Shown here piece after piece: positions 30,223 through 64,000 of a DNA stretch of 64,000 nt. The stretch is taken from assembly GCA_042408245.1 (NCBI GenBank), contig JAYFMV010000019.1:3511-67510 (forward strand), written 5' to 3'. The position numbers were made by a program, and so were the translations under genes. Source of the DNA: Potamolinea sp. GTDB lineage: Bacteria; Cyanobacteriota; Cyanobacteriia; Cyanobacteriales; Coleofasciculaceae. The notes beneath the pieces were generated by a model that saw only the letters and a list, made by a program, of their open reading frames with translations, was not told the origin of the DNA and did no database searches. Each line of letters opens with the position of its first letter. Position 1 is the first letter of the stretch.

Positions 30223-30690
30223 GAAGTCCGACACCCTCAAGGGTGCGGCTACCTGAACAAAGTCCGCCTGCGCGGACTAAATGCCCAAGACTTGTGATAG
30301 CCTGCGTAGGCAGGCTTGGTTCCTGTAGCCCCAGGCTTAAGCCTGCGGGGCTTTTGAGCAACTAAATGCCGAACAATGGTGATCTAAGCCCGACACCCTC
30401 AAGGGTGCGGAACCACACGAACAAAGTCCGCCTGCGCGGACTAAATGCCCAAGACTTGTGATAGCCTGCGTAGGCAGGCTTGGTTCCTGTAGCCCCAGGC
30501 TTAAGCCTGCGGGGCTTTTGAGCAACTAAATGCCGAACAATGGTGATCTAAGCCCGACACCCTCAAGGGTGCGGAACCACACGAACAAAGTCCGCCTGCG
30601 CGGACTAAATGCCCAAGACTTGTGATAGCCTGCGTAGGCAGGCTTGGTTCCTGTAGCCCCAGGCTTCAGCCTGCGGGACTTTGATGAGAA
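30223..30690. repeat. three tandem copies of a ~163-bp unit rich in internal hairpins
   Basis: Units start at 30223, 30386 and 30550. Copies 2 and 3 are near-identical. Internal palindromes include caccctcaagggtg, gtccgcctgcgcggac, agcctgcgtaggcaggct and caggcttaagcctg. The last copy overlaps the final 8 codons of the MVP homolog. Confidence 0.9.
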
Positions 30691-56997: not shown

Positions 56998-57146
56998 TCG
57001 GATTCCTAATTTAATTTTTCAAAAAATCAGCTTTATTAAAAATGCTTGAAATTCATTAATAGCGATTTAAATTGTTAGTTGTCGATCTCAAACAAGGCTT
57101 GATCACAACTAAAAATTCAAGTAAATAATGTCGAGGTTACCTATCC

Positions 57147-57476
57147 TCAAACAGATTGATTGCGGTGCTTTTGTAACTCAGCACGCAAAAGGGCAATTTC
57201 GGCTCTGAGATCGTCGATCATTGCTTGCAAGTCACCTGATTCTTGACCGACTGGTGCAGTTGTACTATATGTTCGCCCTTGCGTTGCGGCTTCGGCTTCG
57301 CGCTCAGCATTAGCCATGACTTGCTCGGTAAATTGCCGCAGTCGCTCCCGTTGTTCAGCATCAAATTTGCCAAGTTCGCTCAGGGCGTTGGTTAGGGCGT
57401 CTTCTACCTGCTCGTTCACAGCTTGAGCTAGTGCTCTGCCCATAAAAAAGGCATGAATTACAGAATTACTCATCAC
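57147..57476 (-). CDS. conserved hypothetical coiled-coil protein
   Basis: 109 aa, helical, no family recognised. Confidence 0.45.
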   Translation of the reverse strand: MMSNSVIHAFFMGRALAQAVNEQVEDALTNALSELGKFDAEQRERLRQFTEQVMANAEREAEAATQGRTYSTTAPVGQESGDLQAMIDDLRAEIALLRAELQKHRNQSV

Positions 57477-58824
57477 AAAATTTCTTTAGCATCTGTAACA
57501 AATTATAACGTGATTATCCAGGAGAGTGGCGATTGGACTTAAGCACTATTTGAGAGCTATGTCTAAGTCCTGTCTCAGAAAAATCTATGCTGGTTAGGTC
57601 CTCAAGGAATTTTCTTCAGCATCAATCTCTCTCAAGGAGATGAGTCTAGGAACTGACCAAAAGAATGGGTACAAGCCCCGTCCTTCTAGGACGGCTTTAA
57701 TTTTCCTGAAATCTCCCTTAAATAGTTTAATATGTTATTAGGGCTTAGCTCTTCTCCCTCTGGACTCAAGACACGTTGAAACAGCTACGTTGCGGGTAGG
57801 CGCTCCTAACGCTATAAAGGCAATGGTTAAAGTCCAACCTGGAAGCACAAAATATTTAGCCTGTAGATAAAAAAAGTCGCCATAGGGCATTGGGAGACTT
57901 TAAACGGACGTAGAGACAGGGTAAGACTACCTCGGTAGCACTGGTCGATGAAACGTCAAGAATCACCGCACTTTTAGGGCGGTGAGTATGTCAAAATAGT
58001 CTACCTCAAAGAATATGCCCAAGCTTGGATATTGAAAAATTGATCAAGGAAAGGATAAGATATACACCCTTCAGGCTACTACGGTAGCTCAGCGCTTCGT
58101 GGGTTATATCGAACTTAGGCTGGGTTTGGGTCATTCAACCAAGTCAACTGCTACTTCAGGTAGAGCTTTTGATTGCTTAGATCGCGCTGAGTATTACAAC
58201 TCTCTTTTTTCACAAGCTGGTAGTCAAAACCCCAAAACTTAATATGTAGTGAAACTTCGTTGCAACTAGGCATTAAAAGTAACACCAGGCTAGGAATTAT
58301 AGCCAAAGATACAAGAACGAGCGGCTTAGTCAAGCGTCCTAGAGCAAGGAATTTCTTGGGATATTTGTCTGGACTGGTTGCTAGACTATGCTTTGACATA
58401 TGATTAAGATGTGGCTGGCTAAACACAACTAAAGATTGACATTTTTCAGCAGAATTGACGTGATTCTTAGTGTTCATGCTCATGAATTTGTAGAGTTGAC
58501 TTTGACTTAAAGCCTGTCTTGCTTAAAACTAGGGTTGCACCATCTCTCGGTAATACAAGTAATACAAAAAAGCCTTCATTAGTTAGTAAGGCAATCAAGA
58601 AATTGTGCTAAAAAAGTCTCTAGCTCTAGATATTTCTTCCCTAACCGAAGCAGCCGGAGGATAACATTAAATGCGAATTACCGTATCCTTTGGCTCCTCG
58701 ATTACTTTTTAAATTTAGACTAGCTATGCTTACACACGCAATCTAAGTGTAAGAAGATACACAAAGGTTCAAAAGTGCAAAAGAGTACACAACTGTGCAT
58801 AATTATTGCAATATTTTGTAGAGA

Positions 58825-60204
58825 ATGAATCAACAGGAATTTACAAAAGCCTTCGAGGAAATGCCACTCCAAAGGAGGAAGGTACTGCAGAAACTATTAG
58901 CTGGTGAGACAGATGAGGCGATCGCCAAATCCCTACAGATAGAACAAACCACTGTTAGATCACATATCAAGAAGATTTGCAATGACTTTGGCATTGAACA
59001 ACCGTTTGCCAATGAACGCCAAAAACGACGCCCTGAGTTAATAGCTCTATTTAAAAAGTACAGACCTGATCTAGTAAGCAATCAGGTGAATAGCGCTACA
59101 GTTGAAGCACCGGATGAGCCAGAAAAAGCACACATCCCCACAGAACTAATCTCTTTACCTGCGGGTATTGTCCCGCTGGATTCACCGTTTTATGTGGAAA
59201 GAGAAGCAGATAAAATTTGCAGACAAGTTTTGCAGTTTCGTAGAAATTCCAGGGAGTCTCTACCTTTTATTCGGATTAAAGGCTCTAGCGGTATGGGCAA
59301 ATCTAGCTTGTTAGTGCGACTTCAGAAGTTGTTAGAAACAGAGCTAAATCAAGTCGTAGGTTTTGTGGATTTAGCTAGTGCTGATTTTGATAAAGATGCC
59401 TTTAGCAATCTGAACAAACTTTTATATCAATTCACATATGCTATCGCCCAAACTTTTAGTGAATCTGTTCCTAATTTGAATCCCTCTCCTCTCAAAAATA
59501 ATTGGATTGAAGATGTCGCATCTGGAGTTAATTGCACAACTTATCTACATGACCACATATTTTCCAAGATTAGGCAACCTAAAACCCTATTAATTGATGG
59601 TATAGATGCCGTATTAGGACAAGAACAGACTCAGACACCATTTTTGCAATTGCTACGTTCTTGGAATGAAAGAAAGATGAAACAGGTTAGCAAAGCACCT
59701 ATAGTCTGGTCTAGCATTGTAATTGCCTACTCCACAGAGCCATACCCAGATCATGGTCAGAAAGGCTCAACTATGCAAAATGTAGGGACAGCAATAGATT
59801 TACAGGAATTTACTCAAGACCAGGTACTAGCTTTAGCTAAAAGTTACGGATTGGACTGGGATTTAACTGAAGTTAGCTCTTTAATGCAGCTAATTGGTGG
59901 TCATCCCACCTTAATCAATCAGGCGCTATATCAAGTTAAGTCTGAGAAAAAAACGCTACTAGATTTGCAATCACAAGCTAGTTTTTTGAATAATCCATTT
60001 GGCGATTACTTACTCAAAAAATTAAGCCTTCTCAAAAATAATGAAAACTTATTAACCTGCTTTATCAACCTTCTGAAAGGTGATAAATGTCACGATGCTT
60101 TTGCAAAATTTGAACTGGAGCGTTCCGGGCTAATTAAAGTAGAAAATTCTGGGGTAAGCGTTAGATGTGAATTATATCAGCGATATTTTCAGGAACATTT
60201 GTAG
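58825..60204 (+). CDS. LuxR/GerE-type HTH fused to AAA-like (AAA_35-type) P-loop domain
   Basis: RRKVLQKLLAGETDEAIAKSLQIEQTTVRSHIKKI (LuxR HTH), then IKGSSGMGKSSLL (P-loop). Confidence 0.65.
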   Translation: MNQQEFTKAFEEMPLQRRKVLQKLLAGETDEAIAKSLQIEQTTVRSHIKKICNDFGIEQPFANERQKRRPELIALFKKYRPDLVSNQVNSATVEAPDEPEKAHIPTELISLPAGIVPLDSPFYVEREADKICRQVLQFRRNSRESLPFIRIKGSSGMGKSSLLVRLQKLLETELNQVVGFVDLASADFDKDAFSNLNKLLYQFTYAIAQTFSESVPNLNPSPLKNNWIEDVASGVNCTTYLHDHIFSKIRQPKTLLIDGIDAVLGQEQTQTPFLQLLRSWNERKMKQVSKAPIVWSSIVIAYSTEPYPDHGQKGSTMQNVGTAIDLQEFTQDQVLALAKSYGLDWDLTEVSSLMQLIGGHPTLINQALYQVKSEKKTLLDLQSQASFLNNPFGDYLLKKLSLLKNNENLLTCFINLLKGDKCHDAFAKFELERSGLIKVENSGVSVRCELYQRYFQEHL

Positions 60205-60342
60205 GTGGTTGATGGATAATAGTAGACAAAGAAAGTTTTACCAAATAAATGGCGGTACTTTACCTCTAGATGCCTGTACCTATGTGGAGCGACAAGCTGA
60301 TGAAGACTTACAGCGGTTACGGCTGTTATGAGGTACAGTCAG

Positions 60343-60432
60343 ACCTAACCCCCAACCCCCTTCCCTTCGAGGGAATGGGGCTAATGTCAAAGCCTCTCTC
60401 CTTTAAGGAGAGAGGTTTGGAGAGAGGTCAAT
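60343..60432. repeat. dispersed double-hairpin element (copy 3), supplying the ATG of the downstream gene
   Basis: About 90% identical to 33421-33512. It ends ...ggagagaggtcaATG. Confidence 0.85.
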
Positions 60433-62281
60433 GTACCGCATTACAGAGGAAACCGCTGTATATCAGTTTGCTCAATTAGATCAAGGTGAAACTCGTGTTT
60501 GTTGCGTTCTAGCTCCTCGACAAACCGGAAAGTCTAGCTTGATGGCAAGAACAGCCAAACGACTGGAAGACGATGGGTTGATCTGCATCCAAATTAACTT
60601 ACAAGAGTTAGGAAATGTGGAATCAGATAGGGCATTATGGCGTACACTGCTGCAGCTTATTTGCCAGCAAGTTGTTCTCCCAGAAGGAAACTTAGTTGAT
60701 AGATTGAATAGCGTTTGGAAACATACACTTGAGTTACAAGCATCGGTACAATTTAAGAATTTTTTAATTGAAGAAATTCTAACAAAGCTCAAAGGCAATA
60801 AATTAATTATTTTTTTAGACGAAATTCAAACATTAATCAACTGGAAACTTCAAAACACTTTTATTGGTTTAATTAGGGATCTGTCACAAAATCACAATCA
60901 AAAGTTACTTCGCCAGCTAAATTTTATTCTACTTGGAGTTGCTAAACCCTCAGACCTTTTGACAGACTCAGGGTTTGCTTTCAACTTGGGAGAGCAGATT
61001 GAACTTGGAAATTTAGAGCAAAAAGACTGTCAGCCACTTCAGCAAGGATTAGAAAAGGTAACCAATAGCCCAGAGACATTACTAAAATCAATCCTTAACT
61101 GGACAGGAGGTCAACCCTTCTTAACACAGATGGTTTGCCACCTGGTAGCTAGTTCTTCTAAAATTCTAGATAATTCTGATGTCGAGAGTTATGTTAAAAA
61201 AATAGTAACGAATCAGGTAATCAAAAATTGGAGGAAGCAGGATAAACAGTCGCATTTACAAGAAATTGAAAACTGGTTCATTAGGGGGGATTATAGTCAA
61301 AAAACAGACAAGTTGAAAGCACTGTCACTTTATAAAAAAATATTGAACAAAGTAACGGTGAAATTTCAAAATAGTATAGAGCAATGGAACTTAATAATCT
61401 CAGGAATAGTCGTAAAAGAACAGGGACGATTAAAAGTTACTAATCAGATTTACCATCAAGTTTTTAATAGGACTTGGCTTCAAGAAACAGAAGAGTGTTT
61501 ACAGGAGAATAAAACTTTAATGGCAGAGCAACTCGACTTAATCTACAACCGTGATGTATTTATGCTAATTGACCAAAGCGCCTCAATGCGCAAAAAAGAT
61601 GATGGTGTTGAAAAGAAACGTTGGCAGCTCCTAGAAGAGTTGGTAGCAGGTCATGTAGATAGTATTCTCGAAATAGATGGTGAAGAGTCAGACAAACAAG
61701 TATGTACTGAAATTTTTATTACTACTTTTAACGTTAATAAGTTTCGAGGTAGCTTGCGACGTGTTACAGATCAATCTCAGGTTAAAGATATTTTTTACGA
61801 AAACCGCCCTGATGGAAATACCTATGTTGTTCCTACTCTCCGTAAATGTCGGGAGCAGTGGTTGGCTGGACGCAATCAAGTTACGGTGACAGAGATCGAA
61901 GCGGGGAAGGCAAAAGGTGCTTTCTTTATTATCTACACCGACGGTCAGTTTGATGACCCTAAATCTTTTGAGGATTTCATCAAAGAAACTTGTCTAAAAA
62001 TTGATGATGAGCGCATTGTTAAAGTACTTATTATCGGTCTTGGCAAAGACATTAATGAAAAGGCTTTCGATGCTCTCAATAAAAACCTTCGTGGTAATAA
62101 AGACTTTAATGGAAAAAACTGTAGGCTCGTTATATCTGACCTAGCTGATAACTTGGATGATGGTATAATTCCGATGATGCAGCGTCTTTATGATTCAACA
62201 TATGAGGGAGATGAATGGAGTCCGATAAATTCGCCTAAACCAACATTTCCCCCTGCGCCAGAGTTTGATGTATTTACGTAA
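60431..62281 (+). CDS. AAA-like (AAA_35-type) P-loop domain fused to C-terminal vWA-like domain
   Basis: P-loop APRQTGKSSLM. C-terminal MIDAS-like LIDQSASMRK, then a vWA-like beta/alpha pattern. Confidence 0.65.
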   Translation: MYRITEETAVYQFAQLDQGETRVCCVLAPRQTGKSSLMARTAKRLEDDGLICIQINLQELGNVESDRALWRTLLQLICQQVVLPEGNLVDRLNSVWKHTLELQASVQFKNFLIEEILTKLKGNKLIIFLDEIQTLINWKLQNTFIGLIRDLSQNHNQKLLRQLNFILLGVAKPSDLLTDSGFAFNLGEQIELGNLEQKDCQPLQQGLEKVTNSPETLLKSILNWTGGQPFLTQMVCHLVASSSKILDNSDVESYVKKIVTNQVIKNWRKQDKQSHLQEIENWFIRGDYSQKTDKLKALSLYKKILNKVTVKFQNSIEQWNLIISGIVVKEQGRLKVTNQIYHQVFNRTWLQETEECLQENKTLMAEQLDLIYNRDVFMLIDQSASMRKKDDGVEKKRWQLLEELVAGHVDSILEIDGEESDKQVCTEIFITTFNVNKFRGSLRRVTDQSQVKDIFYENRPDGNTYVVPTLRKCREQWLAGRNQVTVTEIEAGKAKGAFFIIYTDGQFDDPKSFEDFIKETCLKIDDERIVKVLIIGLGKDINEKAFDALNKNLRGNKDFNGKNCRLVISDLADNLDDGIIPMMQRLYDSTYEGDEWSPINSPKPTFPPAPEFDVFT

Positions 62282-62300
62282 AATAAATGTCAGCGTATCA

Positions 62301-62332
62301 GATCCCCGACTTCTCCCAGAAGTCGGGGATCT
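62301..62332. terminator. bidirectional Rho-independent terminator hairpin
   Basis: atccccgacttctcccagaagtcggggat between convergent genes, with flanking A/T runs. Confidence 0.7.
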
Positions 62333-62397
62333 CCCCTTCACGAATCATTTCTAAAGAGATGGAGTTTCCCGCAACGGAAGGATTTTGATGATGAGGT

Positions 62398-64000
62398 TTA
62401 TTCTTCCCCTTCTTCTTGTTGCCGTAGCTTCTCCAACACACTACGATCTTCTAAGGTCGAAGTATCACCAGTGATTTCCTGTCCTGCTGCTAGTGAACGT
62501 AAAAGCCGTCTCATAATTTTCCCGGAACGAGTCTTGGGTAAAGCATCAGAAAAGCGAATTTCACCAGGACGAGCGATCGCCCCAATTTCCTTGATCATGT
62601 GATCCTGAAGTTGTTTTTTTAGTTGTTCACTGGGACGATAGCTACTCTCCAAAGTCACAAAAGCCACAATATCTTCACCTTTGAGAGCGTCTGGTTTCCC
62701 AACCACAGCCGCTTCTACTACAGCGGGGTGAGATACCAAAGCTGACTCAATTTCCATAGTTCCCAAGCGGTGTCCAGATACATTAATCACATCATCTACT
62801 CGACCCATCACCCAAAGGTAATCATCTTCATCCTTGTGGGCACCATCACCGGTGAAATAGAGATACCTGCCATCTTTGGGGGGGATATGCTCCCAATAAG
62901 TACTACGGAAGCGTTCAGTATCACCATAGACTGTTCGCATCATGCTGGGCCAGGGATGTTGCACTACTAGATAACCACCAGCATGACCCTTGACTGGCTC
63001 ACCTTTCTCATCTACAACATCAACTAGAATACCAGGGAAAGGTAAAGTGGCAGAACCTGGTTTTGTCGGTGTACAACCTGGCAAAGGAGTAATCATAATT
63101 CCGCCTGTTTCTGTTTGCCACCAAGTATCGACAATCGGACAGCGTTCTCCACCAATTACTGTATGATACCACATCCAAGCCTCTGGATTAATTGGTTCAC
63201 CAACAGTACCTAGTAATCTTAGCGAAGAGAGATTTCTTGCCTTGGGTAAGTGTTCTCCCATCTTCATGAAAGCCCGAATTGCTGTTGGAGCCGTGTAAAA
63301 GATATTGACGCCATGTTTCTGAATTACGTCCCACATACAGCCAGGATTAGAAGGACGAGGTGCGCCTTCATACATCATGGTTGTTGCCCCATTAGACAAG
63401 GGTCCATAGACAATGTAACTATGTCCTGTAATCCAGCCCACATCAGCAGTACACCAATATACATCTGTATCTTTGATGTCAAATATCCACTTAGTTGTGA
63501 TGTGAGTATAGAGGTTATAACCAGCGGTAGTGTGCACAACTCCTTTGGGTTTTCCAGTACTACCAGAAGTGTAGAGGATGAACAACATATCCTCGCTGTC
63601 CATTGGTTCGGCTGGACAGTCTAAGGAAACTCCCTGGCGTAAATCATCCCACCAATGATCCCGCCCTATTTTCATCTGTATTTTTTGTTTAGTGCGTTTC
63701 ACCACTAAAACATTTTGTACAGAGGGAACTTTATCGCTAGATAGGGCTTTATCAACTTGCTCTTTAAGAGGGACAATCGCATCTTTTCGGAACCCTCCAT
63801 CGGCGGTGATTACGAGTTTTGCTTGTCCATCAATCAGGCGATCGCGCAATGCTTCAGCACTGAAACCACCAAAAACCACTGTATGAGGTGCGCCAATTCT
63901 GGCACAAGCTAACATAGCGATCGCAGCTTCAGGAATCATGGGCATATATATACCCACTATGTCGCCCTTTTGCACCCCTAATTGTTTGAGAACATTCGCC
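62398..64000 (-). CDS. acs: acetyl-CoA synthetase (partial, N-terminus beyond window)
   Basis: [15 protein letters not shown]-binding motif, hinge WWQTETGG and a C-terminal Lys (SGKIMRR). The ORF runs to the window edge. Confidence 0.9.

Follow-up and report, generated by a model that had tools for sequence, protein, structure and literature searches.

A conserved AAA_35 gene pair as a probable split STAND-like sensor and output module, with the sensor gene interrupted by a hairpin insertion in Potamolinea

Introduction

What do two adjacent genes do that share an uncommon nucleotide-binding domain and differ in everything attached to it, and is the second of them still whole? The question is raised by a locus of Potamolinea sp. 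(assembly GCA_042408245.1, contig JAYFMV010000019.1), in a stretch of 64,000 nt that was analyzed as a whole and is called the window here. The original prediction, made from this sequence, described two tandem genes with AAA_35 domains, one carrying a LuxR-type helix-turn-helix (HTH) and the other a von Willebrand factor A (vWA)-like domain with a metal ion-dependent adhesion site (MIDAS). It placed a dispersed double-hairpin element in the spacer between them, where it would supply the ATG of the second gene, and proposed a regulatory or defence-like two-gene module. Our analysis favors a conserved two-gene operon that is probably a split pair resembling STAND (signal transduction ATPases with numerous domains) and NLR proteins, in which the product of gene 2, called B-type below, would sense and the product of gene 1, called A-type, would give the output. 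In this genome the sensor gene is split by the element.

Two adjacent AAA_35 genes with different accessory domains

An NCBI metagenome-assembled genome (MAG) labelled Potamolinea sp. encodes identical versions of both proteins; the 616-aa open reading frame (ORF) of gene 2 corresponds to its protein P0001. The features of the two genes, all on the + strand, are as follows.

58825..60204, + strand: gene 1, A-type AAA_35 protein of 459 aa with an N-terminal LuxR/GerE HTH, a disordered linker and a C-terminal AAA_35 module
58876..58983, + strand: LuxR/GerE HTH of gene 1, residues 18-53
59158..60195, + strand: AAA_35 module of gene 1, running to the C-terminus
59188-59211, + strand: motif FYVEREAD of gene 1
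59281-59307, + strand: Walker A of gene 1, GSSGMGKSS
59587-59607, + strand: Walker B of gene 1, LLIDGID
59896-59913, + strand: GxP motif of gene 1, GGHPTL
60431..62281, + strand: annotated ORF of gene 2, 616 aa, with its ATG in the right arm of the insertion described below
60461..61468, + strand: remaining part of the B-type AAA_35 module of gene 2
60512-60538, + strand: Walker A of gene 2, APRQTGKSS
60803-60829, + strand: Walker B of gene 2, LIIFLDEIQ
61106-61123, + strand: GxP motif of gene 2, GGQPFL
61250-61276, + strand: SHLQEIENW of gene 2, containing an invariant His
61550..62194, + strand: vWA domain of gene 2, from an AlphaFold2 model, Foldseek, a PDB profile search and conservation
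61571-61585, 61817-61837 and 61928-61945, + strand: MIDAS residues of gene 2, in DQSAS, NTYVVPT (Thr) and IIYTDG (Asp), respectively

The Pfam gathering cut-off for AAA_35 (PF14516) is 27 bits. Gene 1 scores 242.3 bits and the annotated gene 2 73.8 bits, rising to 85.9 bits for gene 2 as reconstructed below, which confirms that two AAA_35 genes stand in tandem. The GerE profile (PF00196, cut-off 23.5 bits) gives 26.7 bits with the full gene 1 protein and 29.2 bits with its N-terminus alone. The AlphaFold2 model has four helices within residues 3-54 at a predicted local distance difference test score (pLDDT) above 90, and the predicted LuxR-type HTH therefore stands. Residues R126, G158, K159, D261, G359 and P361 of gene 1 are invariant across 43 orthologues.

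The vWA domain of gene 2 needed evidence beyond its own profile score, as the protein reaches 20.6 bits with VWA_2 and so fails the sequence threshold of 27 bits. Its orthologue P0023 passes VWA with 26.4 bits against a cut-off of 23.8, and a profile built from 29 homologues matched TRAP and the integrin alpha-M I-domain in the PDB (E ∼2e-3). A model of the C-terminal 267 residues (pLDDT 85.6, predicted template modelling score 0.83) was compared with the PDB using Foldseek; vWA domains were found in all 50 listed matches (E 2e-7 to 3e-5), with the BON1 copine on top (2e-7), followed by LapA vWFA, TFIIH p44/Ssl1, RGLG1, TRAP, Rpn10 and CMG2. Across 29 sequences the D and first S of DQSAS and the Asp of TDG are invariant, the second S is present in at least 90%, and Thr is the majority residue in NTY. 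Model, searches and conservation together identify the C-terminus of gene 2 as a vWA domain with a conserved DxSxS MIDAS, in agreement with the original prediction, and metal binding is predicted. Gene 2 combines AAA_35 with vWA; gene 1 combines a LuxR/GerE HTH with a full AAA_35 module.

The AAA_35 fold is similar to that of STAND and ATPase_2 proteins, with a nucleotide-binding domain, a helical domain and a winged helix. An hhGRExE-like motif, Walker A, Walker B and GxP are conserved in the A and B subfamilies defined below, and a winged helix follows the core. Because these motifs and the terminal winged helix are present, we take AAA_35 to be a STAND-like nucleotide-binding oligomerisation module, for which nucleotide-dependent oligomerisation is predicted. 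The archaeal ATPase_2 proteins PAB2304 (2qen) and SSO1545 (2fna) are 12% identical to AAA_35. These are stand-alone proteins of uncharacterised function and, unlike the window proteins, have no HTH, no vWA and no A/B pairing.

Gene 2 is split near its 5′ end by an insertion

The element is not an intergenic spacer, as had been proposed, but lies within the original coding sequence of gene 2. The features at this site are the following.

60212..60310, + strand: original 5′ end of gene 2, 33 codons encoding MDNSRQRKFYQINGGTLPLDACTYVERQADEDL, severed from the remainder of the gene
60278-60301, + strand: hhGRExE-like motif TYVERQAD in the severed gene 2 start
60309-60310 and 60459-60460: TA flanks of the insertion
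60311..60458, no strand assigned: MITE-like (miniature inverted-repeat transposable element-like) insertion, 148 nt
60311-60337 and 60432-60458: terminal inverted repeats of the insertion, matching at 22/27 positions
60341-60428: double-hairpin core of the insertion, with hairpins at 60356-60380 and 60387-60421
60329-60331 and about 60404: in-frame stops inside the insertion

An ATG at 60212, 7 nt past the gene 1 stop, shares its frame with the annotated gene 2 ORF. The peptide that it opens, MDNSRQRKFYQINGGTLPLDACTYVERQADEDL, was aligned to 10 and then to 28 homologous proteins, which are 31–57% identical to gene 2 and 600–669 aa long. It matches their N-termini residue for residue, and their consensus there is M..SFYQ.EGG.LPL.APTYVEREAD..LYQFA. 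The homologues pass from ...ADEKL straight to YQFAQ.... At this point exactly 50 additional codons, in frame and with two stops among them, interrupt the window sequence, so that translation from ATG 60212 would end in a 39-aa stub; these codons are absent from 28/28 homologues. If 60311-60460, comprising the element and one TA, is removed, the sequence reads ...DEDLYQFAQ... again and a 639-aa ORF opens at ATG 60212; the AAA_35 match then grows from profile positions 33-330 in the annotated protein to 3-330 in the reconstructed one. The predicted empty-site junction, 150 bp shorter, reads ...GAAGACTTATATCAG.... The ATG at 60431 does lie inside the element, as originally stated, and the first 10 codons of the annotated ORF are element-derived; this ATG is, however, not the start of the intact gene, since the insertion falls after codon 33.

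Because the source is a MAG, and because assemblers can mis-join at dispersed repeats such as the core of this element, the insertion might be a repeat-induced chimera. It is, however, exactly 150 nt long and in frame, has TA at both junctions, and its flanks rejoin exactly to the homologue consensus (DEDL/YQFAQ). The outer arms are unique to the site and pair with each other, which is not expected from a chimeric join. An assembly artefact is therefore extremely improbable.

The element is MITE-like, being short and non-coding with terminal inverted repeats. As RNA it folds into a single long stem around the two hairpins (−80.7 kcal/mol, z = −8.7), and the local GC content rises to 0.46 at the insertion. 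Its 88-nt core (60341-60428) is 93% identical to 33423-33510 and has a partial copy near 34900-35035, so the description of a dispersed double hairpin was correct. The outer arms are essentially unique in the window and recur only as a 14-nt stretch at 33395. Among the 83 AAA_35 loci considered below, the match to the element is limited to a 38-nt hairpin in L023.

Cyanobacterial MITEs and small dispersed repeats, such as Nezha and those of Nostoc and Anabaena, are shorter than 200 nt and non-coding, have terminal inverted repeats and a hairpin core, and insert into genes. The window element resembles them in size, lack of coding capacity, terminal inverted repeats, dispersed hairpin core and insertion into a gene. 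It has been matched to no named family, and the 88-nt core alone recurs in the window.

A copy of the same element family lies at about 34900-35035 in another gene of the window, which encodes an NB-ARC and TPR STAND NTPase (33801-35801, − strand). This copy is in frame and stop-free, sits between the nucleotide-binding oligomerisation domain (NOD) and the TPR repeats, and translates as ...SPPAPLLQGEGSKTLTPSTPTPTPSTPTPPFPRREGGLGGLGQ.... This is a second STAND gene of the window struck by the element, and the copy there is apparently tolerated.

Is a shortened gene 2 protein made from the element? The annotated model would be right if the element served as a 5′ leader with ribosome-binding site and ATG, so that the gene was rewired rather than killed and the truncated 616-aa protein works. 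The 616 codons after ATG 60431 are open, a Shine-Dalgarno-like stretch, GGAGAGAGG, lies 3 nt before this ATG, and Walker A, Walker B, GxP and MIDAS are intact. The remaining body of the gene is also undecayed: it departs from the 28 homologues at 2 of the 97 alignment columns with conservation of at least 90%, where close intact homologues differ in 0–7. The stop-free copy in the other STAND gene makes coding tolerance of the element possible. However, the product would lack Y24, V25, R27 and D30, which are present in 28/28 homologues and, with the severed segment itself, invariant in 29/29 sequences. We equate the severed YVERQAD with hhGRExE of the STAND NTPases, a motif whose hydrophobic residue hydrogen-bonds the adenine base in the crystal structure of NRC1, a solved STAND protein (PMC6713354). 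Moreover, both ATG 60431 and GGAGAGAGG are buried in the very stable element stem, and no homologue has a start that matches position 60431. The lack of decay is explained equally well by a recent insertion; indeed, the insertion looks recent because the remaining gene shows none, so that either the event is recent or a truncated product is still under selection. Overall, we consider a working truncated protein unlikely.

As the insertion parts the hhGRExE-like motif from the P-loop and adds two stops, gene 2, the sensor half, is most likely non-functional or expressed as an N-terminally truncated protein from the ATG within the element. With the sensor gene split, the pair in this genome is probably inactive or altered, and the A/B module here is probably impaired.

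The two genes are conserved as a pair

The arrangement recurs in 8 other cyanobacterial genomes, where an orthologue of gene 1 (43–60% identity) immediately precedes one of gene 2 in the same orientation. Four of these loci are from two Laspinema genomes, Oscillatoria sp. HE19RPO and an uncultured cyanobacterium (L001, L002, L004, L005), and four from Funiculus sociatus, Microcoleus sp. FACHB-68, Nostoc sp. DedSLP04 and Aerosakkonema sp. BLCC-F183 (L080-L083). The intergenic gap in the latter four, from stop to next start, is −14 to 124 nt. The genes flanking the pair are not conserved between genera. The two genes are thus co-conserved, and the earlier proposal of a regulatory or defence-like two-gene module stands; neither of the outcomes named as evidence against it, a lack of support for the AAA_35 or vWA calls or a lack of co-conservation, was observed.

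In two proteins, P0114 and P0118, a single chain holds an XRE HTH, an NB-ARC domain and a vWA module that is 44% identical to that of gene 2. These are a fused counterpart of the window pair, built on a different NOD family.

The gene 1 orthologues of Funiculus (L080 4644-6014) and Microcoleus FACHB-68 (L081 4665-5972) have another N-terminal domain of ∼90 aa, and in both loci the upstream region holds a pair of small divergent genes and an M23 peptidase. Small divergent genes before gene 1 (L080, L081, L083) were considered as part of the module and rejected: they are common to L080 and L081 only and left no trace in the window.

AAA_35 proteins form two subfamilies that occur in pairs

A scan of 185,579 species genomes gave more than 599 matches, of which 79 loci were retained. 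All but about four of the 79 carry cyanobacterial record titles, which confirms that the family is largely cyanobacterial, and most are paralogues, not orthologues. The sole clearly non-cyanobacterial label is that of L013 (Actinomycetota bacterium MAG69). Its kinase-AAA_16-GAF-AAA_35 protein has an architecture near-identical to one in Sphaerospermopsis (L068), which suggests that the label stems from a binning error or that the gene was transferred horizontally.

Pairing was evaluated in 83 loci that were chosen by B-type peptide patterns, a selection on which every pairing frequency given here depends. Of these loci, 68 have two or more AAA_35 domains. The domains separate into two types, with identities of 47% within A, 52% within B and 24% between A and B, and the nearest neighbour from another locus is of the same type in 163/163 cases. 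The position of the ATPase follows the type: it is C-terminal in A-type proteins, behind a variable N-terminal extension in 58/65, and N-terminal in B-type proteins, before a variable C-terminal extension in 88/98. Judged by these sequences, AAA_35 is made up of two deep subfamilies, A with a variable N-terminal and B with a variable C-terminal domain.

There are 62 cases of an A gene directly followed by a B gene of the same orientation, and the gap is below 700 nt in 54 of the 83 loci, mostly between −135 and +135 nt. In eight loci (L066, L021, L051, L011, L058, L054, L079 and L032) two to four co-directional B genes follow one A gene. The three complete B genes of L066 each have a C-terminal extension of ∼800 aa, and the one that was scanned matched a PADLOC WD40/HEAT-type repeat model. 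Across 51 pairs, the A and B identity matrices are correlated with r = 0.92, a value reached by 0/999 Mantel permutations that may nevertheless partly reflect shared species phylogeny. Rosetta-stone fusions of A to B were looked for among B proteins with long N-termini, and kinase-GAF or HisK-RR-PAS was found there instead.

These data bear on a simpler explanation, namely that the two proteins are tandem paralogues acting independently as homo-oligomeric regulators and that their adjacency is a relic of duplication. Single-chain STAND proteins do act as homo-oligomers, Walker A and Walker B are complete in both window proteins, and 15 of the 83 loci have a single AAA_35 gene. Yet the duplication is ancient, given the low identity between types, and order, strand and tight spacing have been kept in 54 loci. 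Some pairs overlap by up to 135 nt, suggesting translational coupling. The architectures are complementary, A lacking a sensor domain and B an output domain, and the two halves co-vary. Independent action is therefore decidedly unlikely, and the window pair is one instance of a general, apparently undescribed A/B pairing rule.

The accessory domains indicate what such pairs could do. Among A-type N-termini (n = 66) we found TIR (15), CHAT (11), GerE (9), protein kinase (6), trypsin-like (5) and XRE HTH (5), as well as hydrolases, patatin, caspase and cyclase. B-type C-termini hold WD40 repeats in 36–37 of 81 cases, and the protein search also returned TPR, GAF, CHASE2, periplasmic-binding-protein, EAL, PAS/receiver and vWA domains.

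This repertoire raises the possibility that the pair is strictly an anti-phage or abortive-infection defence system, which would be compatible with a split-sensor mechanism. TIR, CHAT, caspase, patatin and trypsin on paralogous A proteins are the effector set of bacterial STAND immunity, and the fold is close to that of Avs and NLR proteins. The context varies by genus, with integrase, PIN, DO-GTPase/dynamin and NB-ARC-WD40 neighbours in L080-L083, and the family is concentrated in multicellular cyanobacteria, like the conflict systems described previously (PMC7159879). On the other hand, the subclade uses an HTH rather than a toxic effector for its output, common signalling domains (GAF, HisK-RR, PAS, CHASE2, PBP, cyclase) are attached to other members, and the flanks in the window are housekeeping genes (ABC1 kinase and acetyl-CoA synthetase). 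When gene 1, gene 2 and eight paralogues (10 proteins) were compared with PADLOC-DB v2.0.0, no model matched their AAA_35 core, and the matches were limited to accessory TIR, kinase, HTH and WD40 parts. In the literature searched, PF14516 is not mentioned, and "AAA_35" returned noise alone. A defence role would follow from the effector domains of paralogous pairs, and we regard a strict defence function of the window pair as doubtful.

A proposed split-sensor mechanism

Complementary architectures, tight operon spacing and co-variation are best fitted, we infer, by a hetero-oligomeric A–B switch. The B protein would sense through its C-terminal domain and the A protein would give the output through its N-terminal domain, with the related NODs as the interface. 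For the window pair, the vWA MIDAS would capture an acidic residue of a putative protein or peptide ligand, as MIDAS vWA domains do in known systems (PMC7159879). Ligand capture would free the B-type ATPase into an ATP-bound, oligomerising state, in which it could co-assemble with the A-type ATPase via the related nucleotide-binding modules. The resulting clustering of HTH domains would then lead to DNA binding and transcriptional control, comparable to multimerisation in MalT.

A candidate operator for such control lies upstream of gene 1.

58729..58753, no strand assigned: perfect inverted repeat CTTACAC-N11-GTGTAAG, 96 nt before gene 1, a low-confidence candidate

Inverted repeats with arms of at least 7 nt around an 11-nt spacer precede gene 1 in 4/9 orthologous loci (window, L004, L005 and L083); in 500 shuffles, four regions at any spacer were reached once. 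No notable k-mer is common to the regions before the gene 1 orthologues; they share only the inverted-repeat geometry 7-N11-7. We regard this site as a weak lead.

Besides the choice of loci and the phylogenetic component of the co-variation mentioned above, several points weigh against the reading as a split sensor interrupted by a mobile element. GerE is missing from the A-type N-terminus in L080 and L081, so that the output domain varies even within the subclade. A few B-type domains are found at the end of kinase-GAF or HisK-RR-PAS proteins; the A/B rule is thus not without exceptions, nor can the family be called purely "immune". The candidate operator was identified post hoc and its arm sequences differ between loci. 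With regard to the element, a second full-length copy with the same outer arms was not found, two metagenome contig scans giving 0 matches, the homologues in which the site is empty are no more than 31–57% identical as proteins, and a TA flank of 2 nt is too short to prove a target-site duplication or to exclude chance.

With these points taken into account, we still consider it probable that the operon encodes a split STAND/NLR-like pair with B as sensor and A as output. The domain content, the co-conservation and the insertion that splits gene 2 here are well supported. More tentatively, AAA_35 A/B pairs at large may constitute a widespread, undescribed split NLR-like class in mostly filamentous cyanobacteria, in which B would nucleate a hetero-oligomer with A, comparable to NAIP with NLRC4 or to plant sensor NLRs with their helpers. 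This wider proposal is possible, and we place less confidence in it than in the reading of the window pair.

The upstream region and other features of the window

The 1.3 kb upstream of the pair had been described as non-coding, which is only partly correct, as it contains a conserved gene. This gene and other features of the window are given here.

58151..58483, − strand: small membrane-protein gene, 110 aa, with a transmembrane segment
57147-57476, − strand: DUF6825 ORF, 109 aa, E 6e-39, between the ABC1 kinase gene and the 57477-58150 gap
30666-33335, − strand: Major Vault Protein homologue, 889 aa, with Vault repeats (E 1e-60) and the MVP shoulder domain (6e-52)

The protein encoded at 58151-58483 has a conserved C-terminal motif, PSCxExSLxVKFWGFEYQLxKKxSC, and 18 homologues at E ≤ 1e-3, and was assigned to no Pfam or NCBIfam family. 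Its C-terminal segment occurs 12 times in the 2614-aa protein P0243. The gene was considered as a travelling partner of AAA_35 pairs and rejected, since it is unlinked to AAA_35 loci elsewhere. As 58151-58483 is a conserved gene, the gaps without an assigned gene are 57477-58150 and 58484-58824.

Rfam, tRNA and promoter/terminator scans of 57000-62500 returned nothing above chance. A terminator-like hairpin is seen at 57678-57704 (+ strand), CCGTCCTTCTAGGACGG followed by a T-rich tail, in the 57477-58150 gap with no + strand ORF upstream; although Rfam finds nothing, it could mark a small RNA.

The Major Vault Protein homologue is, to our knowledge, unusual in a bacterial genome. A copy of the hairpin element (33395-33530) lies just downstream of its ORF.

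Discussion

The closest functional analogue for an HTH output is MalT of Escherichia coli, which likewise is a STAND transcription activator with a LuxR-type HTH. MalT is, however, a single polypeptide with a C-terminal HTH and a helical-repeat sensor, whereas in the window the HTH is N-terminal, the vWA sensor is on a second, paralogous ATPase, and the ATPase is AAA_35 and not of the MalT family.

With respect to gene organization, the closest described analogue is the nSTAND2 operon of two adjacent STAND NTPase genes with variable accessory domains, for whose products a toroidal hetero-multimer has been proposed (Kaur, Iyer, Burroughs and Aravind 2021, PMC8195603). The nSTAND2 NTPases belong to another family, described as nearer to CR-ATPases and Dap3, use GT4-type effectors and are not confined to cyanobacteria; the window proteins, in contrast, both keep Walker A and Walker B. 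The same paper cites the MNS clade of Leipe et al. 2004, the Npun2340/2341 family, named after two adjacent Nostoc punctiforme genes, and reports that its NTPase is central and preceded by N-terminal effectors that include TIR, caspase, trypsin and kinase (PMC8195603). Compared by this description only, its N-terminal effector set matches that of the A-type proteins, and the MNS clade may be identical with Pfam AAA_35. A split of effector and sensor between A and B is not described in the portions of text that were searched.

A coupling of an AAA+ ATPase to a MIDAS vWA domain thought to capture peptide is also found in the MoxR-vWA ternary systems (Kaur et al. 2020, PMC7159879). In the window the ATPase is AAA_35, not MoxR, the vWA is fused rather than separate, and there is no VMAP or third component. 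Membership in these systems was therefore rejected: there is no MoxR, and the neighbours are the DUF6825 gene, the small membrane-protein gene, ABC1 kinase and acetyl-CoA synthetase.

One NOD senses and a paralogous NOD gives the output in NAIP–NLRC4 of animals and in plant sensor–helper NLRs, and a plant helper can serve several sensors. The analogy to the window pair is a functional one, and the service of several sensors by one helper may be compared with the loci that have one A and several B genes. There is no orthology, the window NOD being AAA_35 with co-directional genes in an operon, and the interaction of the two proteins is the predicted one described above.

The locus shows how a hairpin element can split a gene while an annotation pipeline calls a seemingly intact protein from the element's own ATG. 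ORF calls that start inside elements conceal pseudogenes and distort domain boundaries.

The logic of separate sensing and output is so far known mainly from the paired NLRs of plants and animals. Should a physical hetero-complex underlie the A/B rule, cyanobacteria would possess a large set of modular two-protein NLR-like switches with sensing and output on separate paralogous ATPases, and the HTH/vWA pair of the window would be a transcription-output version of such a split system. Where several B genes accompany one A gene, a single effector would be able to act for more than one sensor. This would provide a bacterial model for a sensor NOD activating an effector NOD, and would add a family outside PADLOC v2.0.0 to the candidate immune or signalling systems.

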